A stretch of DNA of 64,000 bases. Origin: an uncultured Actinomycetota bacterium. Lineage in GTDB: Bacteria > Actinomycetota > Humimicrobiia > Humimicrobiales > Humimicrobiaceae. Numbering within the stretch: position 1 is the stretch's first letter; every line of letters starts with the position of its first letter. The DNA lies in NCBI GenBank assembly GCA_964603595.1, contig CAZRVN010000004.1, positions 148,678-212,677 on the forward strand. The letters run 5' to 3'. Both the position numbers and the translations under genes were made by a program. The notes below the pieces were generated by a model. The model saw only the letters and a list, made by a program, of their open reading frames with translations. It did no database searches and was not told the origin of the DNA. Positions 9,677-39,347 of the stretch are shown here, in pieces.

Positions 9677-11938
9677 TTAAATAGAAAATTCAGAGAATTC
9701 TTCTTTAATTTTAAATTCAATACTTGTTATCTGTGAAGTATAATTTATTATTTTATGTATATTATCAGATATTTCCTTTTGGACATTCTTGTCTTTTGGT
9801 ATTGGTATAAGAATAGATTCAAAGACTTCTTTTCGGATTGATGGATAACCATTATTTAATAGCAATTTAGATGCATCAATGTTTAATAAACAAGCAAATA
9901 GATAGAGAGGTTTAATCCTATCGGCATGAGGTATTATACACGCAAAATGACTTACAACATATCCATCACAACCAAGAATCCCTCTATGATTTTTTAATAC
10001 AGTCTTTCCACTTTTCGGGAACAATATAGTCCCCTTGGGAAATTTATACAGATTCTCTATACCTCTTTCATTCAACTTATCTCTTGTTTTTATTAAATTA
10101 TAGGAAATATGTTCTCTTGCTAAATCTGATACTCTAAAGAATGGGTATACACCATCAGAAAATAACTCTGGATCCTGAGGCGCACTTTGTCCGAATTTTA
10201 TATCTGCTAATCTTGATAATGGGAAAGAATTAAAATCTTTTGACCTTAAACCCCTTTCTTCATAAATACTCTTTACCAACTGAAAACCTTTATTTTTAAT
10301 TTTATCTACCTCTAAAAAAGAAAATTCTATTCCATCAAGTAATTTGTCCAAATCATTATCCCCTTTTAAGGGTCTTCTGTAGTTATCTAGTGTAAAACCA
10401 TCATTCTTAACCTCGAAATACCATATTTTATTCTTTTTCTTGTTTTTAACTTTTATATATAGAATATTTGTCTTTTGTGGTGTATATGGTAGAAATACAC
10501 CATCGGGCAATGAGACTATTGTATGTAAGTCAAAATCCCTTATTATAAATTCTCTTTCTTTCCTATAAGTAGAATCGAAAAGAAAGCCTTCTGGAACAAT
10601 AATTCCGCACCTACTATTGTGATTAGCTTTATTTAGGGCTTTTAAACAATGTTGTATACAAATACTATCTCCGTTATCGGTTGGAAGATTATAAAAAGAA
10701 CCATGTGGCGTTTTGGTGGAAAAGGGTATATTAGTTATTACAATATCATATTTATTATCAATTGGGTTAACGAGACTATTAACTTTTTCTATATTGGAAT
10801 GACCATCCCCTATAAGTATCATATTCATTTTTGCAATTCTGGCAATGCTTGTTATTTCCCTTCCATATAATGATGATCTCTTCAAAACATTGATGGAATT
10901 TTCATTCTGTGGCATTGTACTTCTAATTTGCTTAAAAGATTCTGTGAGCATGCCGCCCGTTCCGCAAAATGGGTCGTATATAGTTTCACCAAACATTGGT
11001 CTCAGTAATTTAACCAAAGTCTTAATAATATGTCTTGGCGTAAAATATTGACCCAAATCATTATTATTACCACTACTATATGATTTTAAGAAATATTCAA
11101 AAGCATCTCCCTTTATATCGGTATTTGTATCGGTTAAATATAGAGGATCAATCATATCTATCAGATTTTTAAACGTATCAGGGTTTGTTATTTTAATATC
11201 CTCAAAAATACTCTTATCGTCAAACCTTTCCTTAAATTCCTTTAATACGACTTTTCCAACATAACTCAATAATTCTACAGGTCTTTTATCTCTAAAATAG
11301 TTCCACCTGTACTCAAGAGGAATATAATCTTTTTTACCACTATTTTCTTTTATTTCCTCTCTTTCGCTTATTAATTTCAAAAATAAAATATTGGCAAATT
11401 CGCTAAATCTTTCAACCCCAGCTTGTAGTCCTTCATCTCTAAGTAAGTCATTAGCTCTATCAAAAATTGAAATTAATTCTTTTCGAGAATTTATAACTTT
11501 TTTATCTAATGAAATATACTCATTATCATAAAGATAGTTTAATGCGAGTACTTCACTAATAAACTCTTCTACCTCCTCACCGTTTAAAAAGAGTGGTTTC
11601 TGTTTTTTTAAATGATATGTTTTTGTAAATACACCGTCAGTCGCATAAACTATCGGAGCGTCTATTTTTTGAGCATATAATACACCCTGTTTAATTGCTT
11701 TATCGATGTTTTCCTTAGGCTTTTTAGCTTCTATTATTATTAACGGCTCGTCTGATAATTTTCTATATAGAATATAGTCAGGCTTTAATCCACCTAATTT
11801 ATCATACTGCGTAGTAGTTTTGGGTTTTTGTTTGAAAACATTTCTTTGTGGACTTTGCGGATTATCATCCCAATTAAGATTTTTGAGTTGATTATCAACT
11901 AGAGTTTCTGTATCTCTTTCGTTTAATAAATTGCTCAT
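9677..11938 (-). CDS. Single-chain restriction-modification enzyme. It fuses a PD-(D/E)xK (HsdR_N/Mrr-like) nuclease domain, an N6-adenine DNA methyltransferase and an HsdS-like target-recognition domain (Type IIG-like).
   Basis: The N-terminus reads PDYILYRK...PLIIIEAKKP, a D...ExK nuclease motif. The middle carries methyltransferase motif I, YDPFCGTGGM, and a motif IV variant, DIVITNIPFS. The C-terminal roughly 180 aa resemble HsdS target-recognition domains. The total is 753 aa. Confidence 0.7.
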   Translation of the reverse strand: MSNLLNERDTETLVDNQLKNLNWDDNPQSPQRNVFKQKPKTTTQYDKLGGLKPDYILYRKLSDEPLIIIEAKKPKENIDKAIKQGVLYAQKIDAPIVYATDGVFTKTYHLKKQKPLFLNGEEVEEFISEVLALNYLYDNEYISLDKKVINSRKELISIFDRANDLLRDEGLQAGVERFSEFANILFLKLISEREEIKENSGKKDYIPLEYRWNYFRDKRPVELLSYVGKVVLKEFKERFDDKSIFEDIKITNPDTFKNLIDMIDPLYLTDTNTDIKGDAFEYFLKSYSSGNNNDLGQYFTPRHIIKTLVKLLRPMFGETIYDPFCGTGGMLTESFKQIRSTMPQNENSINVLKRSSLYGREITSIARIAKMNMILIGDGHSNIEKVNSLVNPIDNKYDIVITNIPFSTKTPHGSFYNLPTDNGDSICIQHCLKALNKANHNSRCGIIVPEGFLFDSTYRKEREFIIRDFDLHTIVSLPDGVFLPYTPQKTNILYIKVKNKKKNKIWYFEVKNDGFTLDNYRRPLKGDNDLDKLLDGIEFSFLEVDKIKNKGFQLVKSIYEERGLRSKDFNSFPLSRLADIKFGQSAPQDPELFSDGVYPFFRVSDLAREHISYNLIKTRDKLNERGIENLYKFPKGTILFPKSGKTVLKNHRGILGCDGYVVSHFACIIPHADRIKPLYLFACLLNIDASKLLLNNGYPSIRKEVFESILIPIPKDKNVQKEISDNIHKIINYTSQITSIEFKIKEEFSEFSI

Positions 11939-18749: not shown

Positions 18750-19346
18750 TTACTCAGCACCTTCCAGAATATATACCAGCCCATAATTTTCAAACACCCT
18801 TTTCATCTCCTTTTCCGCCTCTATAAAGAGTGCTTCCGTATCAAGATAGAGCTTTTCTATTTTTGGCTCATCAAATGTGGAATAATTTCCGCTTTCATAA
18901 TATGACAGCACAAGATTTATGGTTTCAATGTCACTATCAATAAATTCCAGTTCATAATTATAAAAAGTCTCAAGCGGGGCCGGGATATTCTCAATAAGGA
19001 GTAATTTTTCCCTGTAACCGGTTACCGCATCACGCCTTTTAGATGCAAGCTCTTTTAGCTGGCCTACGTTTATAAACTCGCTGTCAAGTTCTTCTGATAA
19101 TTCAACTGTCTTTTCAATAAATTCATCCTTAAGCGGCCTGAACTTTTGGTAATACTCTGCAATCTCCCTCGCTTCTTCTGACTTTATCTCTTCAAGCATC
19201 TCAATTTCCCGCCTTGCCTCTTCTTCCAACTCTCTGCGGTTTTCTATTTTCTGCATCTCCATGGAAAATACATTGTATATTACAAGTGCTATAATAATTA
19301 TAACCAGTATCAATGCAGCTAATTTTTCTTTATTTAACTTACTCAT
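18750..19346 (-). CDS. Sortase-associated membrane-anchored coiled-coil protein (copy 1). Function unknown.
   Basis: It has an N-terminal transmembrane segment and an E/R-rich heptad region (EEEARREIEMLEEIKSEEAREIAEYY). It lies directly downstream of sortase 1. It is clearly paralogous to the ORF at 23936-24514. Confidence 0.6.
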   Translation of the reverse strand: MSKLNKEKLAALILVIIIIALVIYNVFSMEMQKIENRRELEEEARREIEMLEEIKSEEAREIAEYYQKFRPLKDEFIEKTVELSEELDSEFINVGQLKELASKRRDAVTGYREKLLLIENIPAPLETFYNYELEFIDSDIETINLVLSYYESGNYSTFDEPKIEKLYLDTEALFIEAEKEMKRVFENYGLVYILEGAE

Positions 19347-19354
19347 TTAATCCA

Positions 19355-20170
19355 TTATTTAACCTCGATAGATGCTATTTTGAGGGGATATATATTTATA
19401 AGTTCTGATATTAATACAATCCTCTCAGCTGCAGAATATTCCGGGTGGCATGAAGTAAGCAAAAGCTCTTTTTTACCAGTACCTTCCAGAATATATACAT
19501 CCTCTGGACCGACTATTTCCAATTCACTGACAGCATAGATAAAAGTCCCGCTTTCTGTCGTTTCAAGATAAATCAGGTCACCTTCAAGAAGTTCATCTAT
19601 CCTATTAAAGGGTGAGCCGTAAGTAGTCCTGTGACCGGAAATAGTGCACCTTCCGGTATCACCCGGAAGCGGGGTTCCCTCAATATGCCCCGGCCCACTT
19701 GTTAAAGTCAGTATGTCAGCCCCCTCGTTTACTATCCGCTCCAGCTTAATTCTGGGGATCTTAATCTTCAACGGGAAAAAGTCTTCCGCAGTTAGATTAC
19801 TGTAGTCTAATATTTCCCTACCAATATCAAAGCCAATTTCAATATCCCCGTAATCTGCAGTGTCCCGGCTGACGGACCCTTCCAGGGTTTTACCATCTTT
19901 AACGCTATCCTCTGAGGCAGTATTTTCTGAAGTGGTTCCAGAATCCCCTGCCAGCCCGGTTGTAGTGGCCCCCTCCTCTGATAGAGCCGCTTCCTGTGAT
20001 CCCCACTTTGATAAAATATCTTCCTGTCTCAATGTTGTTATGATATTTATATACAAGGGATATAATAAAAATAATATTACCGCGAAAGCTGCTAGAAACA
20101 ACGTTACCTTAATTATTCTTGACACTTTGACTTTTGAAAACTTTACTTTTTTCATATCATCAGGACGCAA
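19355..20170 (-). CDS. Sortase (copy 1)
   Basis: It has an N-terminal transmembrane anchor. The catalytic triad context is conserved, with His in GHRTTYG, Cys in LLLTSCHP (the TLxTC motif) and the following Arg. Confidence 0.8.
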   Translation of the reverse strand: MRPDDMKKVKFSKVKVSRIIKVTLFLAAFAVILFLLYPLYINIITTLRQEDILSKWGSQEAALSEEGATTTGLAGDSGTTSENTASEDSVKDGKTLEGSVSRDTADYGDIEIGFDIGREILDYSNLTAEDFFPLKIKIPRIKLERIVNEGADILTLTSGPGHIEGTPLPGDTGRCTISGHRTTYGSPFNRIDELLEGDLIYLETTESGTFIYAVSELEIVGPEDVYILEGTGKKELLLTSCHPEYSAAERIVLISELINIYPLKIASIEVK

Positions 20171-20213
20171 GATTTATACAGAATTGTCTATCATGCTCTG
20201 GAACAATTTAGTT

Positions 20214-22100
20214 TTATTTATAAAAAATATTTGATACCCTGCTTAATGCATCTATGGCATGCTGCGTGGTATCAATCCGTATCCTGTTATCATCAACCCT
20301 GAATCTAATCGCCCCTTCTACTCTCTCAGGGTGTGAGAGATAGTACATATCCGTACCGTCAAACTGAAGATTGATTAGATTATGAACACCGAGAAGAATT
20401 GATTTTTCATATCTATACATCCTCCCGTAATCTTTATCAAGCTCAGCCAATTCATAAGCGTAGGTCAATCCTTCCACATAAACTCCAGTGCTGCCTGAAA
20501 AGGGCACGCCGTATTCGGGATTGTCCGGGTCATAAAATCTCCCCAGATAATCAATATATGGTTTCCCGTCCTGGTCCTGCATTTGGATAATCTTATCATT
20601 TAACTTAAAGATTGCATCCTTGTATTTACTGGAACCAGTAATTAAATACAGCTTATAAAGAGACATCGTATGCCAGGGAACATAAGCCGGAAAATAATTA
20701 GCATCCATAAGGTCAACATATTTATTGACATAGTAATCCTGGGATTTTATCGCTGCATCAAGATACTTTTCATCTCCTGTTTTTTCATACAGTTCTACCA
20801 TGCTCAATATAGCTTCGCCGCTGTAATAAGTCAGCAGTTCTTCTTCATCATAGGAGTAGCCGGGTTCAATATACCACGCCCCAAGGGAGCCATCTTCATT
20901 CTGGAGGTACTGTAATGTATTGGCAAGCTTTGTAGCTTCATCCCTGTACTGCTCAAAATATGGGCTGAAAACCAGGACTCTCAGAGCTATGCCAATTGCA
21001 CCGATTTTTGATTTATTTTTAAAATATATATACCCCATCTTGCCGTCTTCCTGGTACCAGTTTTTAAAAATATAATCCAGGTTTTCCTCATGCATCCGGA
21101 GTAGCTCATTATTTTCACTGCTTTTTTCAGCCAGCCATCTTGATGACATAAGCTGTCTTATCATATTATTGCCATCATAATATTCGCCTTTTGAAGGTTC
21201 GTACTGGTAATTAAAATAACCCTTGCTATTCAGGTTGGAAAGCATCCACGCTTCGGCAAGGTCAAGGGAGCTTTCTATTTTTTCGCTATCTATATCAGGC
21301 CTAAAATCAATTTCGTTACACCTGTAGAAAGTAGTAATCTCATCTGAAAACCTGGTGGTCGCAAAATGTATGGTGGGAAAATAATATATATTTGTTGAAC
21401 TATCACTGTAGCAATCCTCATCTAAGTCCGCCTTTTTACATAACTTTAGAAGCAATGTATCCAGACTATGATTTCCTTCAACGGCAACCGTATTATAATA
21501 AGTTGCTCCGCTTTCCCCTTTTTCTATCCTTAACCCATGAATTCCTTTTTCATAACCCCCGTCTAACTTTTTTTCATCTCCAAGGATAATTATCTCTATT
21601 TTCAGATCATCTATATCATCTTCGGTTATTCCTCCGAATCTAGCGTCCTCTATGGTCCTTAAAGCCGCGACATAGACACTTTCCGCCAGGTTATTTTTTC
21701 TTGCAGAATATGACCCCTTTTTGCATCCCTCTAAACCGAACCCGATAAATACCTTCCTATCTACATCATCATATTTTTCTAAAAATAAAGACTCCTCATC
21801 AACATCCGAACCCGAGAAATAGTCATCTATCGCCTTATACGCGACTTCCATCAAGTATTCTTTATCTTCGTAAGATAAATCAATGAATTCGCCCGAATCC
21901 ACTTCAATAGAGTTAACATATTTAGAAAATTCTTTTTCAAACCAGCTTTCGTAGTCGTCACCGACCACGCTTATGTCTATTTCGCCCTCCTTTTCCTCCC
22001 TGCACCCGGAGCACAGGTAAGCGAAAGGTAAAAATAAAAAAATCATAGAGATAAAAAGCAAGATAATCCTTACTGTAATTTTTTTTCCATACCCGGGCAT
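20214..22100 (-). CDS. Lipoprotein with a C-terminal alpha/alpha-toroid-like repeat domain. Function unknown. The start is reassigned to the Met at 22100.
   Basis: The Met at 22100 is preceded by a GGAGGG RBS and begins a signal peptide with lipobox LCSGC. The C-terminal half carries repeated aromatic D-G motifs (NEDGSLGAWY, QDQDGKPY) reminiscent of prenyltransferase or terpene-cyclase-type toroids. The track ORF starts at 22178. Confidence 0.5.
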   Translation of the reverse strand: MPGYGKKITVRIILLFISMIFLFLPFAYLCSGCREEKEGEIDISVVGDDYESWFEKEFSKYVNSIEVDSGEFIDLSYEDKEYLMEVAYKAIDDYFSGSDVDEESLFLEKYDDVDRKVFIGFGLEGCKKGSYSARKNNLAESVYVAALRTIEDARFGGITEDDIDDLKIEIIILGDEKKLDGGYEKGIHGLRIEKGESGATYYNTVAVEGNHSLDTLLLKLCKKADLDEDCYSDSSTNIYYFPTIHFATTRFSDEITTFYRCNEIDFRPDIDSEKIESSLDLAEAWMLSNLNSKGYFNYQYEPSKGEYYDGNNMIRQLMSSRWLAEKSSENNELLRMHEENLDYIFKNWYQEDGKMGYIYFKNKSKIGAIGIALRVLVFSPYFEQYRDEATKLANTLQYLQNEDGSLGAWYIEPGYSYDEEELLTYYSGEAILSMVELYEKTGDEKYLDAAIKSQDYYVNKYVDLMDANYFPAYVPWHTMSLYKLYLITGSSKYKDAIFKLNDKIIQMQDQDGKPYIDYLGRFYDPDNPEYGVPFSGSTGVYVEGLTYAYELAELDKDYGRMYRYEKSILLGVHNLINLQFDGTDMYYLSHPERVEGAIRFRVDDNRIRIDTTQHAIDALSRVSNIFYK

Positions 22101-22195
22101 TATATTCCCTCCTATTACCTTATGATACATAAACCCTTCCCGTATCATTTTTAAATTGTGCAACAAATTATACAACAATACTGGTTAAAATATAA

Positions 22196-22226
22196 AATAG
22201 CCCGGACAATATGCCCGTGCTATTTT
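22196..22226 (-). terminator. Bidirectional-looking intrinsic terminator hairpin (copy 1, slightly decayed)
   Basis: AAATAGCCCGGACAATATGCCCGTGCTATTTT forms a 9-10 bp stem flanked by an A-tract and a T-tract. It is a near-identical copy of the hairpin at 25288-25320 with one stem mismatch. Confidence 0.55.
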
Positions 22227-22248
22227 ATTTCATTTTATATAATACCTG

Positions 22249-22287
22249 TTACTTCCTCCTGAACTTCTTCCTAAGTGAAGCTATAAA
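22249..22287 (-). pseudogene. 3'-terminal remnant of an LPxTG surface-protein gene. Only the last 12 codons and the stop are conserved.
   Basis: The minus-strand translation ...FIASLRKKFRRK* matches the C-terminal tail FIASLKKKFRRK* of the 1453-aa LPFTG protein. It is followed by the same terminator hairpin, and the upstream reading frame is not conserved. Confidence 0.55.
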
Positions 22288-22307
22288 AAAACAGGAAAAG
22301 AGGCTGA

Positions 22308-22335
22308 TTGACTTATTTCACAATTAGTATATAAT
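22308..22335 (+). promoter_or_regulatory. Putative sigma-70 promoter for abiEi with an overlapping dyad
   Basis: TTGACT-16 nt-TATAAT lies 11 nt before the ATG. An AGTA...TACT dyad overlaps the -10 element and could be an autoregulatory operator. Confidence 0.4.
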
Positions 22336-22346
22336 ATGTACTAATT

Positions 22347-22979
22347 ATGAATCAAGTTAAAAAAATTAAAAAACTGGAAAATCTCAGCTATTTTAATAAA
22401 GATACCATATCGCAGTTTGTTGATATAAATAAAAACGCTCTTTCGCAAGACGTTAAGAGATGGATTCAAAATGGTACTTTAATACAGCTAAAAAAGGGGT
22501 TTTATGTTACCTCAAATTATTTTGAAAGACTGGGAAACAAAACTCCATACCTTGAATTTATATCAAACAAACTGAGGGAGCCGTCATATCTAAGTCTGGA
22601 ATATATTTTACAAAAATACGGAGTATTAACGGAATCAATCTATTCTATTAATTCCATAACCATCAAATCAAGTAGAATATATAGAAACAATCTTGGTCTT
22701 TTTATATACAGGAATATAAAAGATGAGCTTTTTACAGGTTTTAATATCACGGAAAAAAATGGCTTTATAGTTAAGGAATCTACAAAAGCCAAGGCCCTTT
22801 TTGACTGGCTCTATTTAAGAATGTTAAGATTTAAAAAAATAGACCTTGCTGTGATGGAATCATTCAGATTGAATCTTGAAAACTTTAAGAAAAAAGATTT
22901 TAAGGAATTTAAAATATATTGTGAGCTTGCAGGTATAAAAAAATATTTAAAACTTGCAGAGATAATTAAAAAAATATAA
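22347..22979 (+). CDS. abiEi: AbiEi-like antitoxin/transcriptional regulator (type IV TA / abortive infection)
   Basis: 210 aa. It lies directly upstream of a DUF1814/AbiEii-family nucleotidyltransferase gene with a 10-nt gap. Its size and position fit AbiEi. Confidence 0.6.
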   Translation: MNQVKKIKKLENLSYFNKDTISQFVDINKNALSQDVKRWIQNGTLIQLKKGFYVTSNYFERLGNKTPYLEFISNKLREPSYLSLEYILQKYGVLTESIYSINSITIKSSRIYRNNLGLFIYRNIKDELFTGFNITEKNGFIVKESTKAKALFDWLYLRMLRFKKIDLAVMESFRLNLENFKKKDFKEFKIYCELAGIKKYLKLAEIIKKI

Positions 22980-22989
22980 CTGCTATAAA

Positions 22990-23841
22990 ATGATTTATAG
23001 AGAACTAGAAAAAATATTAATCGAAGAAAGAGACAGAGGCTCGCATGATGCTTATATCCTTAACTTATTAAAGGAGTATCTTCAGGTATATGTACTCTAC
23101 TTTATCTATACAAATTCTAAATATAATAAAAATCTTATTTTTACCGGCGGCACCTGCCTAAGACATTTTTATAATCTGCCGAGACTTTCAGAAGACATAG
23201 ATTTTGATTTTAAGGAGAATTTTGACCGTAAGATTTTGCTTGATGACCTTGAAGAATATTATAAAAAAAGATATAAGTATAATGAAATAAAGCTGGCTTT
23301 AAAGCAGCGCGGAGAACAGATATTGCTAAAGTTTCCAGTTTTACATAAACTGGGTCTGGCAGAAGAAGATAAAAGCAATCTGCTATTTGTAAAGCTCGAT
23401 TTTTCAGTAAACCCATCAAAATACTTTAACCTCGAGACTACTTCAAAATCCATTTATGGTTTTAATTTTGCGGCAGTTCATTATGACCTGTCTTCCCTTA
23501 TGTCCGGCAAAATACACGCTATTTTGGTAAGAAAAATATTTAAGGGTATCAATAATACCGAAGTGATTAGAGGCAGGGATTATTTTGACCTCCTATGGTT
23601 CTTAAAAAAATCTATCAGACCCAATCTAAAAAGACTTTCAGAAATGCTTGGCACCAGCATTAGCATGAATTTTCTTGTAAAACAACTGGATTTAAAAGTT
23701 AAGGAGCTTGCCAGGAAACATAAGTCATTTTTAAAATCTGACATTGCCCCACTTATAAGCAGCCCTGATTTTATAAAAATCTATGTGGATAATTATTACG
23801 AGGAATACATGAGAAATAAAAAGAATCTCTTCCAGGAATAA
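22990..23841 (+). CDS. abiEii: AbiEii/AbiGii-family nucleotidyltransferase toxin
   Basis: It carries LIFTGGTCLRHFYNLPRLSEDIDFDF, the GG[ST]xL and [DE]x[DE] nucleotidyltransferase motifs typical of AbiEii (DUF1814). The product is 283 aa. Confidence 0.7.
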   Translation: MIYRELEKILIEERDRGSHDAYILNLLKEYLQVYVLYFIYTNSKYNKNLIFTGGTCLRHFYNLPRLSEDIDFDFKENFDRKILLDDLEEYYKKRYKYNEIKLALKQRGEQILLKFPVLHKLGLAEEDKSNLLFVKLDFSVNPSKYFNLETTSKSIYGFNFAAVHYDLSSLMSGKIHAILVRKIFKGINNTEVIRGRDYFDLLWFLKKSIRPNLKRLSEMLGTSISMNFLVKQLDLKVKELARKHKSFLKSDIAPLISSPDFIKIYVDNYYEEYMRNKKNLFQE

Positions 23842-23935
23842 AATAAATATAAAGTCTTATTTTAATTCCTTAATAGCTTTGCATATATCTCATTCAATCA
23901 TTATGATTCTACTTTTTCCATTAATAATGATTAAT

Positions 23936-24514
23936 TTACTCAAAAAGATATCTCATCTCATATTGTCTGCATACATTATATAACTCTTCCTCAGCCCTCT
24001 GGTAAAGCAAACCGGTTTTCAGGTAAAGCTCATTTAAGATACTGCTATTATATGTTGAGTAGCTTTCACTGTCATAATATGAAAGCACAAGCCCGATGGT
24101 TTCAATATCGCTTTTTATAAATTCAAGCTCATAGTCATGGAAAGTTTCAAGCGGGGAAGGGACGCTCTCAATCATAAGAAATTTATCCCTGAATGCAATT
24201 GCAGCATCAAGCCGGCGAGATACAAGCTCTTTTATCCGGTCTATATTTACAAACTCGCTTTCCATCTCTTCTGATAATTCAATCGTTTCTTTGATAAATT
24301 CATCCCTGGCAGGCTCAAACTCAAGATAATATTCTACAACCTCTCTCGCTTCTTCTAACTTTATCTCCTCAAGCATCTCCCTTTTGAGCCGTTCTTCTTC
24401 TCTGGCTTCTCTCTCTGCTGCTATCTTCCCGTGTTCAACAAGGATAACATTAAGACCGACCAGAATAACTGCTGCTAAAAGAATTACAAGGGCTATTTTA
24501 CTTTTTCCTTTCAT
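23936..24514 (-). CDS. Sortase-associated membrane-anchored coiled-coil protein (copy 2)
   Basis: It is paralogous to the ORF at 18750-19346 (AEREAREEERLKREMLEEIKLEEAREVVEYY). Its start overlaps the sortase 2 stop by 4 nt (ATGA). Confidence 0.6.
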   Translation of the reverse strand: MKGKSKIALVILLAAVILVGLNVILVEHGKIAAEREAREEERLKREMLEEIKLEEAREVVEYYLEFEPARDEFIKETIELSEEMESEFVNIDRIKELVSRRLDAAIAFRDKFLMIESVPSPLETFHDYELEFIKSDIETIGLVLSYYDSESYSTYNSSILNELYLKTGLLYQRAEEELYNVCRQYEMRYLFE

Positions 24515-25230
24515 TTCACCCCTCCATAAATATCCAGACCCATCGGATAGAGATTCAGGAGCTCAGAGATTACAACCAGTCTTTTCGCACCGGAATATTT
24601 CGGATGGCAGGTTGTAAGCAAAAGTTCCTTCTTATATGAGCCCTCAAGTATATATACATCTTCGGGGCTAACGATATCCATACCTGTAACAGCATACACG
24701 AATAATTCCTCCTTAATAGTTTCCAGATAAATAAGGTCTCCTTCTTCAAGCTCATCAATCCTGTTAAAAGGCGAGCCGTAAGTCGTTCTGTGGCCGGATA
24801 TCGTACACCTCCCGGTATCTCCGGGAAGCGGCGTTTCAGAGATATGGCCGGGCCCCTGCTCTAGGGATTGGGGTTCCGCCCCCTCCCAGGAAACAAGCTC
24901 AAGGCCTATCCGCGGGATAGTCAGTTTCGCAGGAAAAAAATCCCCCGATGTTAATGCACTATAATCCAGGCCGCCATTAATCTCATATTGTGCACCACCG
25001 CCGGAAGTGTTAAAAGTCTCCATGTCTGCTTCCGCACCACTGCTATCTTCGTCTGCTTTTTCTTCTTCAAGTAAAGCTTCTTTACCTTCCTCCCACTGTG
25101 ATAAATAAGACGCCCTTTCCTTTTCGGTTAAAATATTTGAATAAATAAGGTAAAAAAGAAATGACACAGTCAGTACAGCAAAAATACAAAGCAGAATAAT
25201 CTTTATTTTTTGTTTCCTGGTTTTATCCAT
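24511..25230 (-). CDS. Sortase (copy 2)
   Basis: It has a transmembrane anchor and the motifs GHRTTYGSPFNRIDEL and LLLTTCHP. It is about 75 percent identical to sortase 1 across the catalytic domain. Confidence 0.8.
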   Translation of the reverse strand: MDKTRKQKIKIILLCIFAVLTVSFLFYLIYSNILTEKERASYLSQWEEGKEALLEEEKADEDSSGAEADMETFNTSGGGAQYEINGGLDYSALTSGDFFPAKLTIPRIGLELVSWEGAEPQSLEQGPGHISETPLPGDTGRCTISGHRTTYGSPFNRIDELEEGDLIYLETIKEELFVYAVTGMDIVSPEDVYILEGSYKKELLLTTCHPKYSGAKRLVVISELLNLYPMGLDIYGGVK

Positions 25231-25287
25231 CTGCCACTCAGTTAAATTTTAGAGAAAATTATATCCCAATAGAGTTAAAGTTAAAAT

Positions 25288-25320
25288 AAAATAGCCCGGA
25301 CAATATGCCCGGGCTATTTT
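25288..25320 (-). terminator. Intrinsic terminator downstream of the LPFTG protein gene
   Basis: AAATAGCCCGGACAATATGCCCGGGCTATTT forms a perfect stem flanked by an A-tract and a T-tract. It lies 23 nt after the stop codon. Confidence 0.7.
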
Positions 25321-25342
25321 TCTATATATTATATTATATTTA

Positions 25343-28300
25343 TTACTTCCTTCTGAACTTCTTTTTCAGTGAAGCTATGAACATTGCCAGTCCACCCAGT
25401 ATTATGGAAACACCGGATATTGGAATAGCAGGATTCATTCCAGTGAATGGAAGTTCCGTAATACCCAATACCTCTATCCCACCATCAGGAGGTGTCTTGG
25501 AGTTAGTTCTGCTGAAACTATGGTTTCTCTTAGCCGAATTAACTTCTATTCCAGTAATATCACTCATTTTTGAATAACCTGACGGCACGGTAGTTTCTAC
25601 AATTCTGTAGGTACCGAATGGGAGATTTCCCCAGCTTACAGTACCATTTCCGGTTATCTTCTTTTCTCCGCCAACTGCAGCACCATTTGAATCATACAGG
25701 GTAAATCCTGCAACATCGGTAGAGTCAAGCCCGCTCTTTGTAAGGGTTACCGAACCACGATAGCTAACCTTTTTCGTGTTTTCTCTGTCAAAGGTGTAGC
25801 TCTGCTGGCCTTCATTTCTGGAATCAATAACTATTCCGGTAATATCTGCTATAGTATTATATCCGGAAGGAGTGGTTGTTTCCTTTATTGAGTATGTATC
25901 CCACTCAAGATCCGTCCAGACAACCGAACCGTTACCTGTTACCGTCTTTTCTCCTCCTACAGGATTATTACTTGAATCATACAGTGTAAATCCTGCAGTA
26001 TCATCATAATCAAGACCGCTCTTATTAAGTGTTATATCTCCAGGTATCCTCGGGTCAGCTATTTCCTGCGTAAGGATAACATTCGGAGTTTCGCTATTCA
26101 AACCAAATACAAACTCACCGATAGGCGGATTCCCGAAAAGCAGATATCCCGCTGGAGCACTTGCTTCTACCACTTTATAAGTTCCATATGGCAAGTCTAT
26201 CCATTTGTAGTGGCCATCAGGACCAAGGATCTGTGTATCAACCAGAATCCATGAACCCTCTCTATACAATTCAAATGTTGATCCGCCAAGAGGCAGCCCT
26301 GTAACAGCATCAGTCTTGAATATTTCAATGGAGCCCTTCTCGGCACAGTTCTCTATAACTACGGGAACTTCTGCACCTATATCACCTTCAATTGTTCCTG
26401 ACCATACCGGATTAGAAACTGTGTAGGTATATAAATTGGTTATTCCATTAAAGTCTTCAAGTATGTAGTAATCACCATAAGGAAGGTCTATCCAGCTTGC
26501 AGTTCCGCCGTTTGATACTGTCTGCGGTGAAGTAGCGATCAGGTTATCACTAGAATCATACAGTGACAGATTTGCCTCATCGTCTCCTTCAAGCCCTATC
26601 TTTGTAACTGTAATGGAGCCCTTCTCTGCAGTGTTTACCACTTCGACCGTAGGATTTTCGTTATCCGGACCGATAACTACCGGGTCGGATGATAGGTCTG
26701 TTGTGTAAGTAAATACGTTACCTGAAGGATAACTCTCTGTTAGGGTATAAGAGCCAAATGGAAGGTCAATCCATCCACCTGTTCCACCTTCACTCAGAGT
26801 GATATCAGTATAAGGGCCACCAGGGCCAGAAAGTGAGAATATTGCCTGGTCGCTCTCTTCCAGTCCAGTCTTGTGAACCGAAATGGAACCCTTCTCGGCA
26901 GTATTAGTTATAGTATCAGTTTCATCACCATCAACAGTGATATTAGCTACCGGATTAGAAACCGTATAGGTATATACGTTGGTTATTCCATTAAAGTCTT
27001 CAAGTATGTAGTAATCACCATAAGGAAGATCTATCCAGCTTGCAGTTCCGCCGTTTGATACTATCTGCGGTGAAGTGGCAATCAGGTTATCACTAGAATC
27101 ATACAGCGAAAGGTTTGCCTGATCATTACCTTCAAGACCTGTCTTTGTAACTGTAATTGAACCCTTCTCGGCAGTGTTGACTACCTCAATCGTCGGCCAT
27201 GTATTATCCGGGCCAATTATTATAGGATCGGACGAGAGGTCTGTTGTGTAAGTATATACGTTACCAGACGGATATGTTTCGGTTAAAGTGTAGCTACCAT
27301 ATGGCAGTTGTTGCCAGTGAATACTTCCATGATTCCATATCGACGCACCACCATAAGATACTCCGCCTGGGCCTGTAAGTGTAAAGGTCGCCCTATCGCT
27401 TCCCTCAAGACCTGTCTTGTGGACCGTAAGGTCGCCCATCTCGGCAGTGTTAGTTATGGTGTCAGTCTCATCACCATCAACGGTAATGTTTGCAACAGGA
27501 TTAGAAACCGTATAGGTATAGACGTTGGTTATTCCATTAAAGTCTTCGACTATATAGTAGCCGCCGTAAGGAAGGTCTATCCAGCTTGCCAATCCACCAT
27601 TTGATACTGTCTGCGGTGAAGTGGCAATCAGGTTATCACTAGAATCATACAGTGAAAGGTTTGCCTGATCATTACCTTTAAGACCCATCTTTGTAACCGT
27701 AATGGAGCCCATCTCGGCAGTGTTAGTTATGGTATCAGTTTCATCACCATTAACGGTAATATCAGCAACAGGATTAGAAACCGTATAGGTATATACGTTG
27801 GTTATTCCATTAAAGTCTTCGACTATATAGTAGCCGCCATAAGGAAGATCTATCCAGCTTGCCAATCCACCATTTGATACTGTCTGTGGTGAAGTGGCGA
27901 TCAGGTTATCACTAGAATCATACAGCGAGAGGTTTGCCTCATCGTCTCCTTCAAGACCTGTCTTTGTAACTGTAATGGAGCCCAAAGGACAATCTACGAT
28001 ATCTTCAACTGCATTTAATGCGCCACCTGTCATGAATAATGCGGTTCCTCCGATATAAACAGTATAAGTAGCCGTATCAACGGCGTATCCCGGAGGAGCA
28101 CTTTCTTCAGTTAACGAATATGTACCCCATGGCAGTCCATCTATAAATGCATTGCCATCCACATCTGTGGTTAAAGTATATTCCGTTACATCAGGTGTGA
28201 AAGTCTGGCCGCCGATATAGGTCAGCTTGTATACCGCACCTTCAACCGGACCCTGGGTCTCGGAATCAGTCTTGTTAAGCTCAAAGCTTCCCCATGCAGT

Positions 28301-30177: not shown

Positions 30178-31248
30178 CTAAAAATCCACTTCAACTCCCG
30201 CATCCCTTAATTCATCTACCTGGCTTTCATCTGCAACAGGATTGCCTTTAATATAAAGCTTCTGTAAATTCGGAAGTTCCTTTAAAGCTGAGATGTCTGT
30301 TATTTCATTATCTTCCAGCCAGAGTGATTCAAGGCTTTTAATCTTTGAAAGTGATGAAATATCAGATATCTTATTCTTTGAAAGAGCCAGCTGCTTTAGA
30401 TTTTCCAACTCTGCCAGCGGTGATATATCTTCTATCTCACACTCGCTGAGACTTACAATCTCTAATTTTTCCATTTCACCCAGCGCTGATATATCTGATA
30501 ACGGGTTATTGCCCAGCATAATTAATACAAGATTAGATAAGCTTGATAACGGGCTGATATCTGATACATTATTGTTAGCCAGGGAAAGGTTCTTTAGATT
30601 TTTTAATTCAGATATAGCGCCAACATCTGCTATCTGGTTCCTGTTTAAACCCAGAACCTCTAAATTAGTAAGTTCTAATAAAGAGGGGATATCTACAATC
30701 AGATTATTATCCAGAACAGCCACCTTTAATTTATCAAGACCTATTAATGGAGAGATGTCTAATATTTCATTTTTGCCCAGACTGACACTTTCTAAATTTA
30801 CTAAATCCTCAAGCGGTCCTATATCTGTTATTTTATTATCATTCAGCCCGAGATTTGCAAGACTGTTAATATTAGAAAGAGGTGATATGTTACTGATTAG
30901 ATTACCATTTAGATTTAATATACGTAGTTTTGTAAGTTTTGACAGGGGTGATATATCAGTTATTTCATTATTGTTTAAACTTAGATTTTCTAAGTTTACA
31001 GCATCTTCAACGCCTGAGATAGTTTTTATCTCCATATTGTCTGCAAATAATTTATCCATTGACTCCATATCTTCAGCGCTTATTTCTTCACCGGTTATGC
31101 CCAGCTCTTCCTTCTCAGCTTTTAAAAGGTTCGGGTCGCTTGCTCTCTTAAATAAACTGCATCCCGGAATACTAACTGATATAATTAACGCTAAAATAAA
31201 TACCGGTGCTGCATAAATAAATTTTTTCATATATATCTTATGTTCCAT
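30178..31248 (-). CDS. Leucine-rich-repeat (internalin-like, 22-residue LRR) lipoprotein
   Basis: About 12 tandem LRRs of the form NLxxLxLxxNxIxDISPLxxLxxL are present. The N-terminus MEHKIYMKKFIYAAPVFILALIISVSIPGC is a signal peptide with a lipobox Cys. The track ORF start at 31341 would read through a terminator hairpin and is rejected. Confidence 0.75.
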   Translation of the reverse strand: MEHKIYMKKFIYAAPVFILALIISVSIPGCSLFKRASDPNLLKAEKEELGITGEEISAEDMESMDKLFADNMEIKTISGVEDAVNLENLSLNNNEITDISPLSKLTKLRILNLNGNLISNISPLSNINSLANLGLNDNKITDIGPLEDLVNLESVSLGKNEILDISPLIGLDKLKVAVLDNNLIVDIPSLLELTNLEVLGLNRNQIADVGAISELKNLKNLSLANNNVSDISPLSSLSNLVLIMLGNNPLSDISALGEMEKLEIVSLSECEIEDISPLAELENLKQLALSKNKISDISSLSKIKSLESLWLEDNEITDISALKELPNLQKLYIKGNPVADESQVDELRDAGVEVDF

Positions 31249-31429
31249 TTGAAATTTAAATAAAAAAAACCGACTGCATTTAGTCGGTTTCGCTACTTGC
31301 TCCTCTTTTCTCAAAGCGTCCAAATTAGAGAAAAGTATCAAAGCACCTAAATTAAAATAAATATTTTAATATCTAAATTATTATATTTTTATAACGGGAT
31401 TATATTACATTTTTTACTAAAATGTCAAA
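31231..31429 (-). promoter_or_regulatory. Promoter plus structured 5' leader (copy 2 of the duplicated element) upstream of the LRR lipoprotein gene
   Basis: The minus strand carries TTGACA (31429-31424) and a TATAAT-like -10 (31404-31399). Hairpin B is next. Hairpin A (31270-31287) comes next, followed by eight U residues that end about 14-30 nt before the start codon. Confidence 0.55.
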
Positions 31430-32847: not shown

Positions 32848-33660
32848 TTAATCAAGATATGAATGTGCATACAATGTTTTATTGGTCAGTATCTCAAAAG
32901 TTCTGACAGCATTCATTAATTCCCTGTCAAGCGGATTAACTATAGCGCTATCAAGACCGTTGCTTAAAAGTATTACAAGATATATCCTGTTAATAAGACT
33001 CTTAAGTTTGTGAGGAGAAGACTGGGAAACATTGCTTAGCCCCACTATAGTTTTTGGCTCGTCATCAAGTCCCATTACTTCCTTAAGTTCCTTAAATGCC
33101 TTCAGTGCGTTAATACAATTTAATACCTGCTCCTGAAGGACAGATACCGGCAGGATTAAAGGATCCAGATACAAATCCCCTGCAGGCACTCCATATTCCA
33201 GCGCAGAATTAACTATATCTATAGCTATTTCTAACCTGCTGTCAACATCGGGGGGCACCCCTTTTTTGGTTAAAGCAATTCCCACGATTTTACTGTTATA
33301 CTTCTTCGCCATGGGCATAAGAATATCAAGCTTATCCCTATCACCTGTAACAGAATTAATCATGGCAACGCCCTTATGTACTTTCAGACCTGCTTCAATA
33401 GCACTTATATTTTTAGTATCAAGAGAAAGATTTACATCTACCTCAGATTGAATGCTTGTAACCATCCACTTCATTAGTTCTTCGCCATTTTTTGTTGCCG
33501 GGCCTATGTTTACATCTATATAGTTCGCGCCTGCTTCTTTCTGCTCTTTTGCTATCTTAATAATGGGCTCTGCATTTCTTTCCTTAACCGCACTGCCTAT
33601 AACCTCTGAAGTTACAGTTATATTTTCCCCTACTATTAACATATTTCTCCCCAGACTCAT
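32848..33660 (-). CDS. acsE: Methyltetrahydrofolate:corrinoid/iron-sulfur protein methyltransferase (pterin-binding, AcsE/MtrH-like)
   Basis: 270 aa. LDTKNISAIEAGLKVHKGVAMINS, DLYLDPLILP and GLSNVSQ are close to Moorella AcsE motifs as I recall them. It lies near the acs cluster. Confidence 0.7.
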   Translation of the reverse strand: MSLGRNMLIVGENITVTSEVIGSAVKERNAEPIIKIAKEQKEAGANYIDVNIGPATKNGEELMKWMVTSIQSEVDVNLSLDTKNISAIEAGLKVHKGVAMINSVTGDRDKLDILMPMAKKYNSKIVGIALTKKGVPPDVDSRLEIAIDIVNSALEYGVPAGDLYLDPLILPVSVLQEQVLNCINALKAFKELKEVMGLDDEPKTIVGLSNVSQSSPHKLKSLINRIYLVILLSNGLDSAIVNPLDRELMNAVRTFEILTNKTLYAHSYLD

Positions 33661-38432: not shown

Positions 38433-39347
38433 TTAAAGCTGCATTTTTGCTGCTTTTAAAGTATTTTTAAGAAGCATCGCAATTGTCATCGGGCCAACTC
38501 CACCGGGAACAGGTGAAATATAGCCAGCTTTGGGCTCCACTTTTAGAAAATCCACATCTCCTATAAGAGTAGAACCCTTTTTCTCAAAGTCTTCCTTTCT
38601 CCATTCAAGAAGTTCCTTACTTGCTTTATCTTTTGTTATCCTGTTAATTCCCACATCTATAACCACTGCGCCTTCCTTAACCATATCTTCTTTAATTAAG
38701 TAAGGAACACCGGCAGCAACAATAAGGATATCAGCTCCTGAAGTACTGAACTTCAGGTCCCTGGTTTCAATATGACATATTGTAACAGTAGCCCATTCAT
38801 TCAAAAGGAGCAGCGATGTCGGTTTGCCCACTATTTCACTGTGCCCCACCATGGTAGCATTCTTTCCCTTTATGGTTATGTTTTCTCTCTTCAGCATTTC
38901 TATAATGCCGGATGGAGTAGCGGGAACCAGGCAATCCTGCTGCGCTATCAGTCTTCCCGTATTTATGGGATGAAATCCATCCACATCCTTTTCCGGGTAT
39001 ATAGCTTCCAGGACCTCTGCCTTATTTACCTGTGGCGGCAACGGAAGCTGGACAAGGATGCCATGGATATCATCCCTCTGGTTAAGCTTCTTGATTTCAT
39101 CCAGAATATCCCTGTTAGATATACTTTTATCCATCCTTATTGTCTCAGAATAGAATCCAACCTCATCACAGCCCTTCTTTTTATTTCTTATATACACTTC
39201 CGAAGCAGGGTTATCCCCTACCAGTATCACTGCCAGACCCGGTGCAACTCCCCTGGTTTTTTTTAGTTCTTTTACTTCTTCTGTTATTTCTTTTTTTATA
39301 TCCTGTGATATCTTCCTGCCGTCAATTAATTTAGCTATTTTAATCAC
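38433..39347 (-). CDS. folD: Bifunctional methylene-THF dehydrogenase / methenyl-THF cyclohydrolase
   Basis: 304 aa with GLAVILVGDNPAS, YIRNKKK and PGGVGPMTIAML motifs. Confidence 0.88.
   Translation of the reverse strand: MIKIAKLIDGRKISQDIKKEITEEVKELKKTRGVAPGLAVILVGDNPASEVYIRNKKKGCDEVGFYSETIRMDKSISNRDILDEIKKLNQRDDIHGILVQLPLPPQVNKAEVLEAIYPEKDVDGFHPINTGRLIAQQDCLVPATPSGIIEMLKRENITIKGKNATMVGHSEIVGKPTSLLLLNEWATVTICHIETRDLKFSTSGADILIVAAGVPYLIKEDMVKEGAVVIDVGINRITKDKASKELLEWRKEDFEKKGSTLIGDVDFLKVEPKAGYISPVPGGVGPMTIAMLLKNTLKAAKMQL

Follow-up and report, generated by a model that had tools for sequence, protein, structure and literature searches.

Two pairs of genes, each encoding a sortase and a small membrane protein (hereafter the partner), were analysed in a 64,000-nt stretch of DNA (the window) from an uncultured Actinomycetota bacterium (contig CAZRVN010000004.1). 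Positions given below are those of the window, in which both pairs are on the minus strand, and L-numbers designate related loci. The four open reading frames (ORFs) were found where the original prediction had placed them, with partners of 198 and 192 aa (Table 1). The intergenic distances agreed with the predicted gap or overlap of 4-8 nt: in pair 1, 8 nt separate the stop codon of sortase 1 from the start codon of partner 1, and in pair 2 the stop codon of sortase 2 overlaps the start codon of partner 2 by 4 nt (ATGA). A Shine-Dalgarno sequence, GGAGGGG, is located 7 nt 5' of the partner 2 ATG, inside the sortase 2 gene; given this motif and the ATGA overlap, translation of sortase 2 and partner 2 is probably coupled, and the co-translation proposed earlier is plausible for pair 2. 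Sortase 1 has an alternative TTG start at 20170 that would give a protein of 271 aa (ORF 19355-20170); the ATG at 20155 is more probably the start, since the public gene call (P0204) is 266 aa long. All four proteins carry one N-terminal hydrophobic segment (Kyte-Doolittle 19-residue mean >2.5) preceded by Lys/Arg, which in the partners is the single transmembrane segment expected. Both sortase and partner are predicted to cross the membrane once in type II orientation, so that the N-terminus is inside and most of the protein outside.

The pairs had been described as two paralogous operons. They are indeed diverged paralogues, but they are not simple two-gene operons, as a gene for an AMMECR1/GH127-like protein ends 43 nt before pair 1. 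Pair 2 comes after the gene of an LPFTG surface protein and its terminator. The minus-strand gene order ends with partner 1, then ligA, then a gene for an Rce1-like protease.

Table 1. Features of the window in and around the two sortase/partner pairs
Feature	Position	Strand	Evidence
LPFTG surface protein (SpaA repeats), 1453 aa	25343-29704	-	Pfam SpaA 1.2e-66, 6 stretches; sorting signal
Terminator-like hairpin between surface-protein gene and sortase 2	25288-25320	-	15-bp stem followed by a T run
Sortase 2, 239 aa	24511-25230	-	Pfam Sortase 3.3e-29; membrane anchor, acidic linker, catalytic domain
Partner 2, 192 aa	23936-24514	-	ORF; AlphaFold (AF2) pLDDT 88.5; no family match
AbiEi-like (210 aa, no Pfam match) and AbiEii toxin-antitoxin cassette	22347-23841	+	
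Fossil 3' end of LPXTG gene (IASLRKKFRRK, then stop) and terminator	22189-22287	-	Repeat of 25283-25381
AMMECR1 and GH127-like protein, 654 aa	20214-22178	-	Pfam AMMECR1 1.6e-16, GH127 catalytic domain 1e-07
Sortase 1, 266 aa	19355-20155 (ATG)	-	Pfam Sortase 3e-26
Partner 1, 198 aa	18750-19346	-	53% identity to partner 2; 254.7 bits against family HMM
Third sortase, 210 aa	31549-32181	+	Different clade, 152 bits against paired-clade model

Strict pairing of the partner with one sortase clade

Partner 1 and partner 2 share 53% identity over 191 aa (E 1e-60), far above chance. Between the two sortases, identity is 51% overall (E 4e-80) and rises to 68% over the C-terminal 150 aa and to 71% (87/122) over the Pfam domain; the earlier figure of about 75% for the sortase domain was therefore slightly high but fair. 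The closest relatives of pair 1 are the pairs of L005/L007, and those of pair 2 the pair of L001. Since each pair has its own closer orthologues in other genomes, a recent tandem duplication was rejected; judged by their sequences, the pairs of the window are two old paralogous modules.

At about 25 distinct loci, the pairing proved strict whichever of the two genes was taken as the starting point. Every partner locus with upstream DNA has a same-strand sortase gene immediately upstream, members with as little as ~20% identity included, and the two genes overlap by 4 nt at one extreme and lie about 150 nt apart at the other. The sole variant is found in L011/L012, in which a CAP-domain gene on the opposite strand is inserted between sortase and partner. 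For the converse test, metagenomes were scanned with a sortase profile and the sortases of the resulting 80 loci were scored against a model of the paired clade. Eleven sortases with at least 270 bits formed a separate group. All of the paired-clade sortases with sufficient downstream room (9/9, at least 288 bits) are followed by a partner; left out of this count were one contig ending 15 nt past the sortase gene and one, with the CAP-gene arrangement, ending before the partner position. None of the 69 sortases with 205 bits or less has a partner (0/69). An independent look-up started from a sortase returned the order LPFTG protein, AMMECR1/GH127, sortase, partner, AbiE and LigA. Pairwise identities of the sortases and of the partners are correlated (r = 0.84), and none of 5000 permutations gave a value as high.

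The claim of strict pairing, which had been drawn from the two copies in the window, thus extends beyond the window: no member is known away from a sortase, and the family does not map to a known unrelated protein. Since the partner is found only beside this type of sortase, the two proteins almost certainly work together.

Predicted architecture of the partner and of its sortase

Members of the partner family are 190-215 aa long. When the two partners were scanned against Pfam and NCBIfam, and 65 members against Pfam, only scattered sub-threshold matches and no family emerged, and the family profile searched against PDB sequences returned nothing meaningful even at E = 10; the earlier statement that the partner has no known motif therefore held. 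An exhaustive HMMER scan of 1.84 billion protein representatives found 36 family members, word-indexed searches gave 37 and 49 clusters, all unnamed, and a genome scan with an alignment of the close subgroup detected 6 species only. The species-level genomes that carry the partner are metagenome-assembled genomes of uncultured Actinomycetota, one of which is Candidatus Hydromicrobium (class Humimicrobiia). Three longer members (P0064, P0052 and P0062) have no informative N-terminal domain. The partner is thus a real, conserved and previously unannotated family of sortase-associated proteins, for which we infer an accessory role.

The AlphaFold model of partner 2, built from a 65-sequence alignment (pLDDT 88.5, pTM 0.72), consists of four helices spanning residues 4-84 (including the membrane anchor, at about 4-26), 91-113, 120-149 and 157-184. 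From this model, the partner is predicted to comprise a membrane anchor, a charged stalk helix and an extracellular four-helix bundle, an architecture that replaces the label of coiled-coil protein given to it originally. The Glu/Arg-rich stretch on which that label was based is real: the stalk measures 31-49 residues among family members and is 38-66% charged. Its heptad character did not stand, as the fraction of strongly hydrophobic residues at a/d positions is 0.17-0.5 in the best register (mean 0.34). For the Glu/Arg-rich stretch noticed at first, this fraction is 0.2-0.36, with 50-65% of residues charged. A canonical coiled coil was rejected on this low a/d hydrophobicity and on the AF2 model, in which the stalk is one continuous helix joining the four-helix bundle; its sequence resembles that of an ER/K-type single helix more than that of a heptad coiled coil. 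Given the positive charges ahead of the membrane anchor, bundle and sortase domain should both lie on the extracellular side. Conservation peaks at two motifs in the connecting loops of the bundle, IPxPL (P119) and YYxSxxYS (Y146, Y147, S149, Y152); the exoplasmic end of the membrane helix and the juxtamembrane segment are also conserved (GYNxFSVE..K, with N22, E27 and K30). Inspection of the sequence together with the Pfam and NCBIfam scans revealed neither a catalytic motif nor a cytoplasmic domain, and the partner was rejected as a sortase substrate since it also lacks a C-terminal sorting signal.

A helical ectodomain on a single membrane pass is a common design, and among the 65 members one has a weak FtsL match (E 0.005) and a few have weak matches to the HBM sensor domain. 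The partner could on this ground be an envelope protein of unrelated function, for example a sensor or a generic protein of septation or stress, that shares a transcript with the sortase without functional coupling. We regard this as very improbable: the two-way adjacency persists at ~20% identity while other neighbours change, the cytoplasmic part is shorter than about 10 residues and is not accompanied by an output domain, and there are no division genes near the pair. A septation protein of the FtsL/DivIC type was rejected on the single weak FtsL match and on the neighbours, which are sortase, LPXTG, rhodanese, AMMECR1 and ligA genes; the septal role suggested earlier thus found nothing in its favour. 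Four-helix-bundle sensors (4HB_MCP, HBM or TorS-type) were rejected as well, with no 4HB_MCP match, weak HBM matches in 2/65 members and no cytoplasmic domain.

Both sortases of the pairs matched the Pfam Sortase family (PF04203, peptidase C60; 92.1 bits for sortase 1 and 101.6 bits for sortase 2, cutoff 26.6) and TIGR01076 (68.3 and 76.8 bits, cutoff 39.35). The catalytic roles of the sortase His, Cys and Arg are well established, and the corresponding residues of sortase 2, H147, C208 (in TxC) and R217, are invariant in alignments of 16 and of 68 sequences. Class E is the best-scoring class (NCBIfam NF033747), with 95.4 and 106.9 bits that remain below the cutoff of 160, and the models of classes C and D score nearly as high. 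The solved structures closest to sortase 2 by sequence belong variously to classes E, C and D, and one orthologue is labelled 'class E sortase' by NCBI. The best reading of these sequences is that the paired sortases are a distinct clade of class-E-like LPxTG/LAxTG transpeptidases. Their catalytic domain is tethered by an acidic linker of 48-86 residues, longer in sortase 1 than in sortase 2, which are otherwise alike in architecture. Two features set the paired sortases apart from the unpaired: an acidic linker that is much longer, and an 'ELxNxYPL' tail at the C-terminus.

The third sortase of the window has a short linker, and neither a partner nor a small transmembrane ORF lies downstream of it. 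Its gene is divergent to that of a leucine-rich-repeat protein (30178-31341, minus strand) whose N-terminal hydrophobic segment ends in Cys. The same unpaired type of sortase is also present in L001 and L007.

Neighbouring genes and putative substrates

The surface protein encoded next to sortase 2 ends with an ELPFTG signal, a hydrophobic tail and the sequence KKKFRRK, and it is the probable substrate of the adjacent enzyme, as far as gene order and sorting signal can tell. It has a long, very acidic N-terminal region and several near-identical internal repeats of about 100 aa ('GSITVTKTGLEG.D.ANLSLYDSSDNLIATSPQTVSNGG...'). Beside paired sortases in general, the substrates mostly carry ELPFTG, with LAFTG, LALTG or LPRTG at some loci, and the sorting-signal context of the neighbouring LPxTG proteins is well conserved ('EVLGIQELPFTG').

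A 99-nt direct repeat (84% identity; 22189-22287 and 25283-25381) flanks sortase 2, partner 2 and the AbiE cassette. The copy at 25283-25381 corresponds to the last 12 codons and the terminator of the LPFTG gene; the other copy is a fossil with an equal hairpin, just upstream of the AMMECR1 gene. In relatives, the LPFTG gene is upstream of the AMMECR1/GH127-like gene, which is followed by the sortase/partner pair. Since an intact LPFTG gene occupies the position of the fossil in relatives L110-L112, a substrate gene has been lost or displaced in the window.

These neighbours bear on the possibility that the partner acts on the substrate or wall side, its head binding ELPFTG proteins, their sorting signals or wall polymer and delivering or retaining them, with no stable binding to the enzyme. 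LPxTG genes are constant neighbours with a well-conserved signal context, and the Tyr/Ser-rich YYxSxxYS loop would, from the helix order of the model, be at the membrane-distal tip of the bundle. We nevertheless hold such a role to be unlikely, as the partner tracks the sortase clade and not the substrate family, the substrates are of various types (SpaA, CLIPPER/DUF11, Flg_new) and partner 1 has no intact substrate gene alongside in the window.

The AMMECR1/GH127-like protein (about 630-650 aa across the loci) carries a GH127-like (alpha/alpha)6 domain and an N-terminal hydrophobic segment of membrane or lipoprotein type. Its gene adjoins the pair in L001 (8702-10582), L011 (3564-5525), L110 (1187-3070), L111 and L112, and is 21-43 nt upstream of the sortase gene in the window and in L110. 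No match was found in the literature for the combination of AMMECR1 and a GH127-like domain beside a sortase. A probably extracytoplasmic protein that joins a rhodanese domain, its active-site Cys conserved, to an N-terminal membrane anchor or lipobox is encoded beside the pair in about half of the lineages (L001 6619-7131; L005 5361-6248; L007 6097-6999; L009 6170-7033; L013 8633-9154; L014 372-902), as well as next to a few of the unpaired sortases (L036, L037, L040). As there is no rhodanese gene within the 64-kb window, it is not an obligatory adjacent component, and a link to the catalytic cysteine of the sortase would be pure speculation. Literature searches on sortases with rhodanese, AMMECR1, a four-helix bundle or a class E operon, or on 2AP3, returned nothing relevant.

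Other genes vary around the pair. An AbiE cassette is also present beside it in L007 (10213-11684), L105 (3674-5168) and L110 (4511-6012), and HEPN/NTase, MazE/PIN or HicAB pairs take its place in other relatives; the interval between the partner gene and ligA has the look of an insertion hotspot for toxin-antitoxin genes. In distant lineages, the pair is flanked by glycosyltransferase genes (PMT_2-like, GT2, GT4 and an STT3 oligosaccharyltransferase; L014 2468-6675, L001 1-524 and one JGI contig), which hints at a surface-glycosylation neighbourhood. The window itself, with a GC content of ~38% and a strongly negative GC skew throughout, also encodes a pterin-binding methyltransferase-like protein (32848-33660), FolD (38433-39347) and a fused type I restriction-modification M/S protein (9677-11938). 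These context genes fit an anaerobic Humimicrobiia-type actinobacterium.

A putative accessory subunit and its known counterparts

On balance, we favour the view that the partner serves its cognate sortase as a dedicated accessory membrane subunit, binding the enzyme and either stabilising or positioning it. Sortase and partner would be made together from one transcript and would associate through parallel transmembrane and juxtamembrane helices, through the head of the partner, or through both. Model and topology place the conserved residues of the partner (P119, Y146, Y147, S149, Y152) outside the cell beside the sortase domain. The analysis shows the gene pairing, its strictness both ways, the co-divergence of the families and the predicted fold and topology; the physical association as well as the stabilising or positioning role are what we infer. 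The partner, itself neither enzyme nor substrate, would either make the sortase more stable in the membrane or keep the catalytic domain of the enzyme in a defined place outside it; from there the sortase would anchor the neighbouring ELPFTG surface proteins.

Several points weigh against the subunit view. Adjacent genes that are simply inherited vertically would also be expected to co-diverge. The length of the stalk is weakly related to that of the sortase linker (Pearson 0.50, p = 0.04; Spearman 0.37, p = 0.14; no phylogenetic correction). The AlphaFold model of sortase 2, built from 68 homologues, reached a pLDDT of 51.5 and was not used for fold search or class assignment. Finally, to our knowledge, sortases of other classes function without any such partner.

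A stronger version, which we put forward tentatively and consider rather improbable, is that the paired clade is an obligate two-subunit enzyme in which stalk and head serve as a molecular ruler and docking platform that fixes the height of the catalytic domain or gates access of the substrate. Such a two-subunit sortase may work with the extracytoplasmic rhodanese and the AMMECR1/GH127-like protein of the same loci.

The class E enzymes, namely SrtE1/SrtE2 of Streptomyces, SrtF of C. diphtheriae and SrtA of A. oris, share with the sortases of the window an N-terminal anchor and an actinobacterial host, and class E structures are among the best PDB sequence matches (5uus, 5utt, 5go5, 5cuw). 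Class E sortases typically recognise LAxTG, whereas the putative substrates encoded beside the paired clade are mostly LPFTG proteins; the long acidic linker of the paired clade further distinguishes it from class E sortases. The Foldseek search of the partner model against the PDB gave nothing significant. PDB 2ap3 (a conserved S. aureus protein of unknown function) and the bundles of Tar/Tsr, TorS and PcaY are 6-14% identical to the partner. The likeness of the modelled fold to these proteins is generic, since designed bundles score equally well, and the sensor bundles carry a cytoplasmic signalling module that the partner lacks.

Sortases are usually treated as stand-alone enzymes. The previously unannotated family described here gains a name and a testable hypothesis, and it offers a compact candidate for interaction and reconstitution work on a host lineage, Humimicrobiia, that is uncultured; the narrow distribution of the family limits its practical impact.

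The closest known counterpart is SafA, the sortase-associated factor A known from Actinomyces oris and Corynebacterium. The gene of this membrane protein of 52 aa lies directly downstream of that of the housekeeping class E sortase, which SafA binds through an exoplasmic FPW motif, thereby blocking release by signal peptidase and keeping the enzyme in the membrane (PMC9282373). SafA-like C-terminal fusions were reported for Bifidobacterium, and SafA (2022) was called by its authors the first trans-acting factor directly affecting sortase-catalysed surface assembly (PMC9282373). Among distant, mostly high-GC class-E-like sortases from metagenomes (L036-L104), many have two extra predicted C-terminal transmembrane segments, and others are followed by a 50-70-aa single-transmembrane ORF (L072, L073); these arrangements are reminiscent of the Bifidobacterium fusions and of SafA.

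SafA and the partner have several properties in common. In Actinomycetota, the gene of each directly follows that of a class E-type sortase and is linked to it across a lineage, both proteins have a single transmembrane helix, and the important part of SafA is exoplasmic, as is predicted for the conserved part of the partner. The partner could therefore be a true equivalent of SafA that masks a signal-peptidase site beyond the sortase anchor and prevents release, the bundle being a lineage-specific add-on. The conserved GYNxFSVE..K segment would be consistent with this, as would AXA-like sites after the membrane helix in some paired sortases ('NAFAE' in L005, 'ANAK' in L013). Other properties make true equivalence decidedly unlikely. 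The AXA signal-peptidase site is the target of SafA, and neither sortase of the window has an obvious AXA motif after its anchor; the FPW and PGP motifs of SafA are absent from both partners and from the family consensus; and conservation across the family is strongest in the bundle loops and not in the anchor. SafA has no ectodomain, whereas the partner, about 4 times as long, is built of a charged stalk and a four-helix bundle, and no sequence relationship was detected between the two.

Combining the accessory-subunit view with this comparison, the partner is a candidate functional analogue of SafA and not a member of its family. It would be a second accessory protein, unrelated to SafA in sequence, differently built and locked to its own sortase clade. 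If so, this would suggest that accessory subunits are a recurring way to control where and how long a sortase stays active, and, were the two-subunit reading also true, the partner would represent another class of sortase-associated factor, the second after SafA and unrelated to it in structure.

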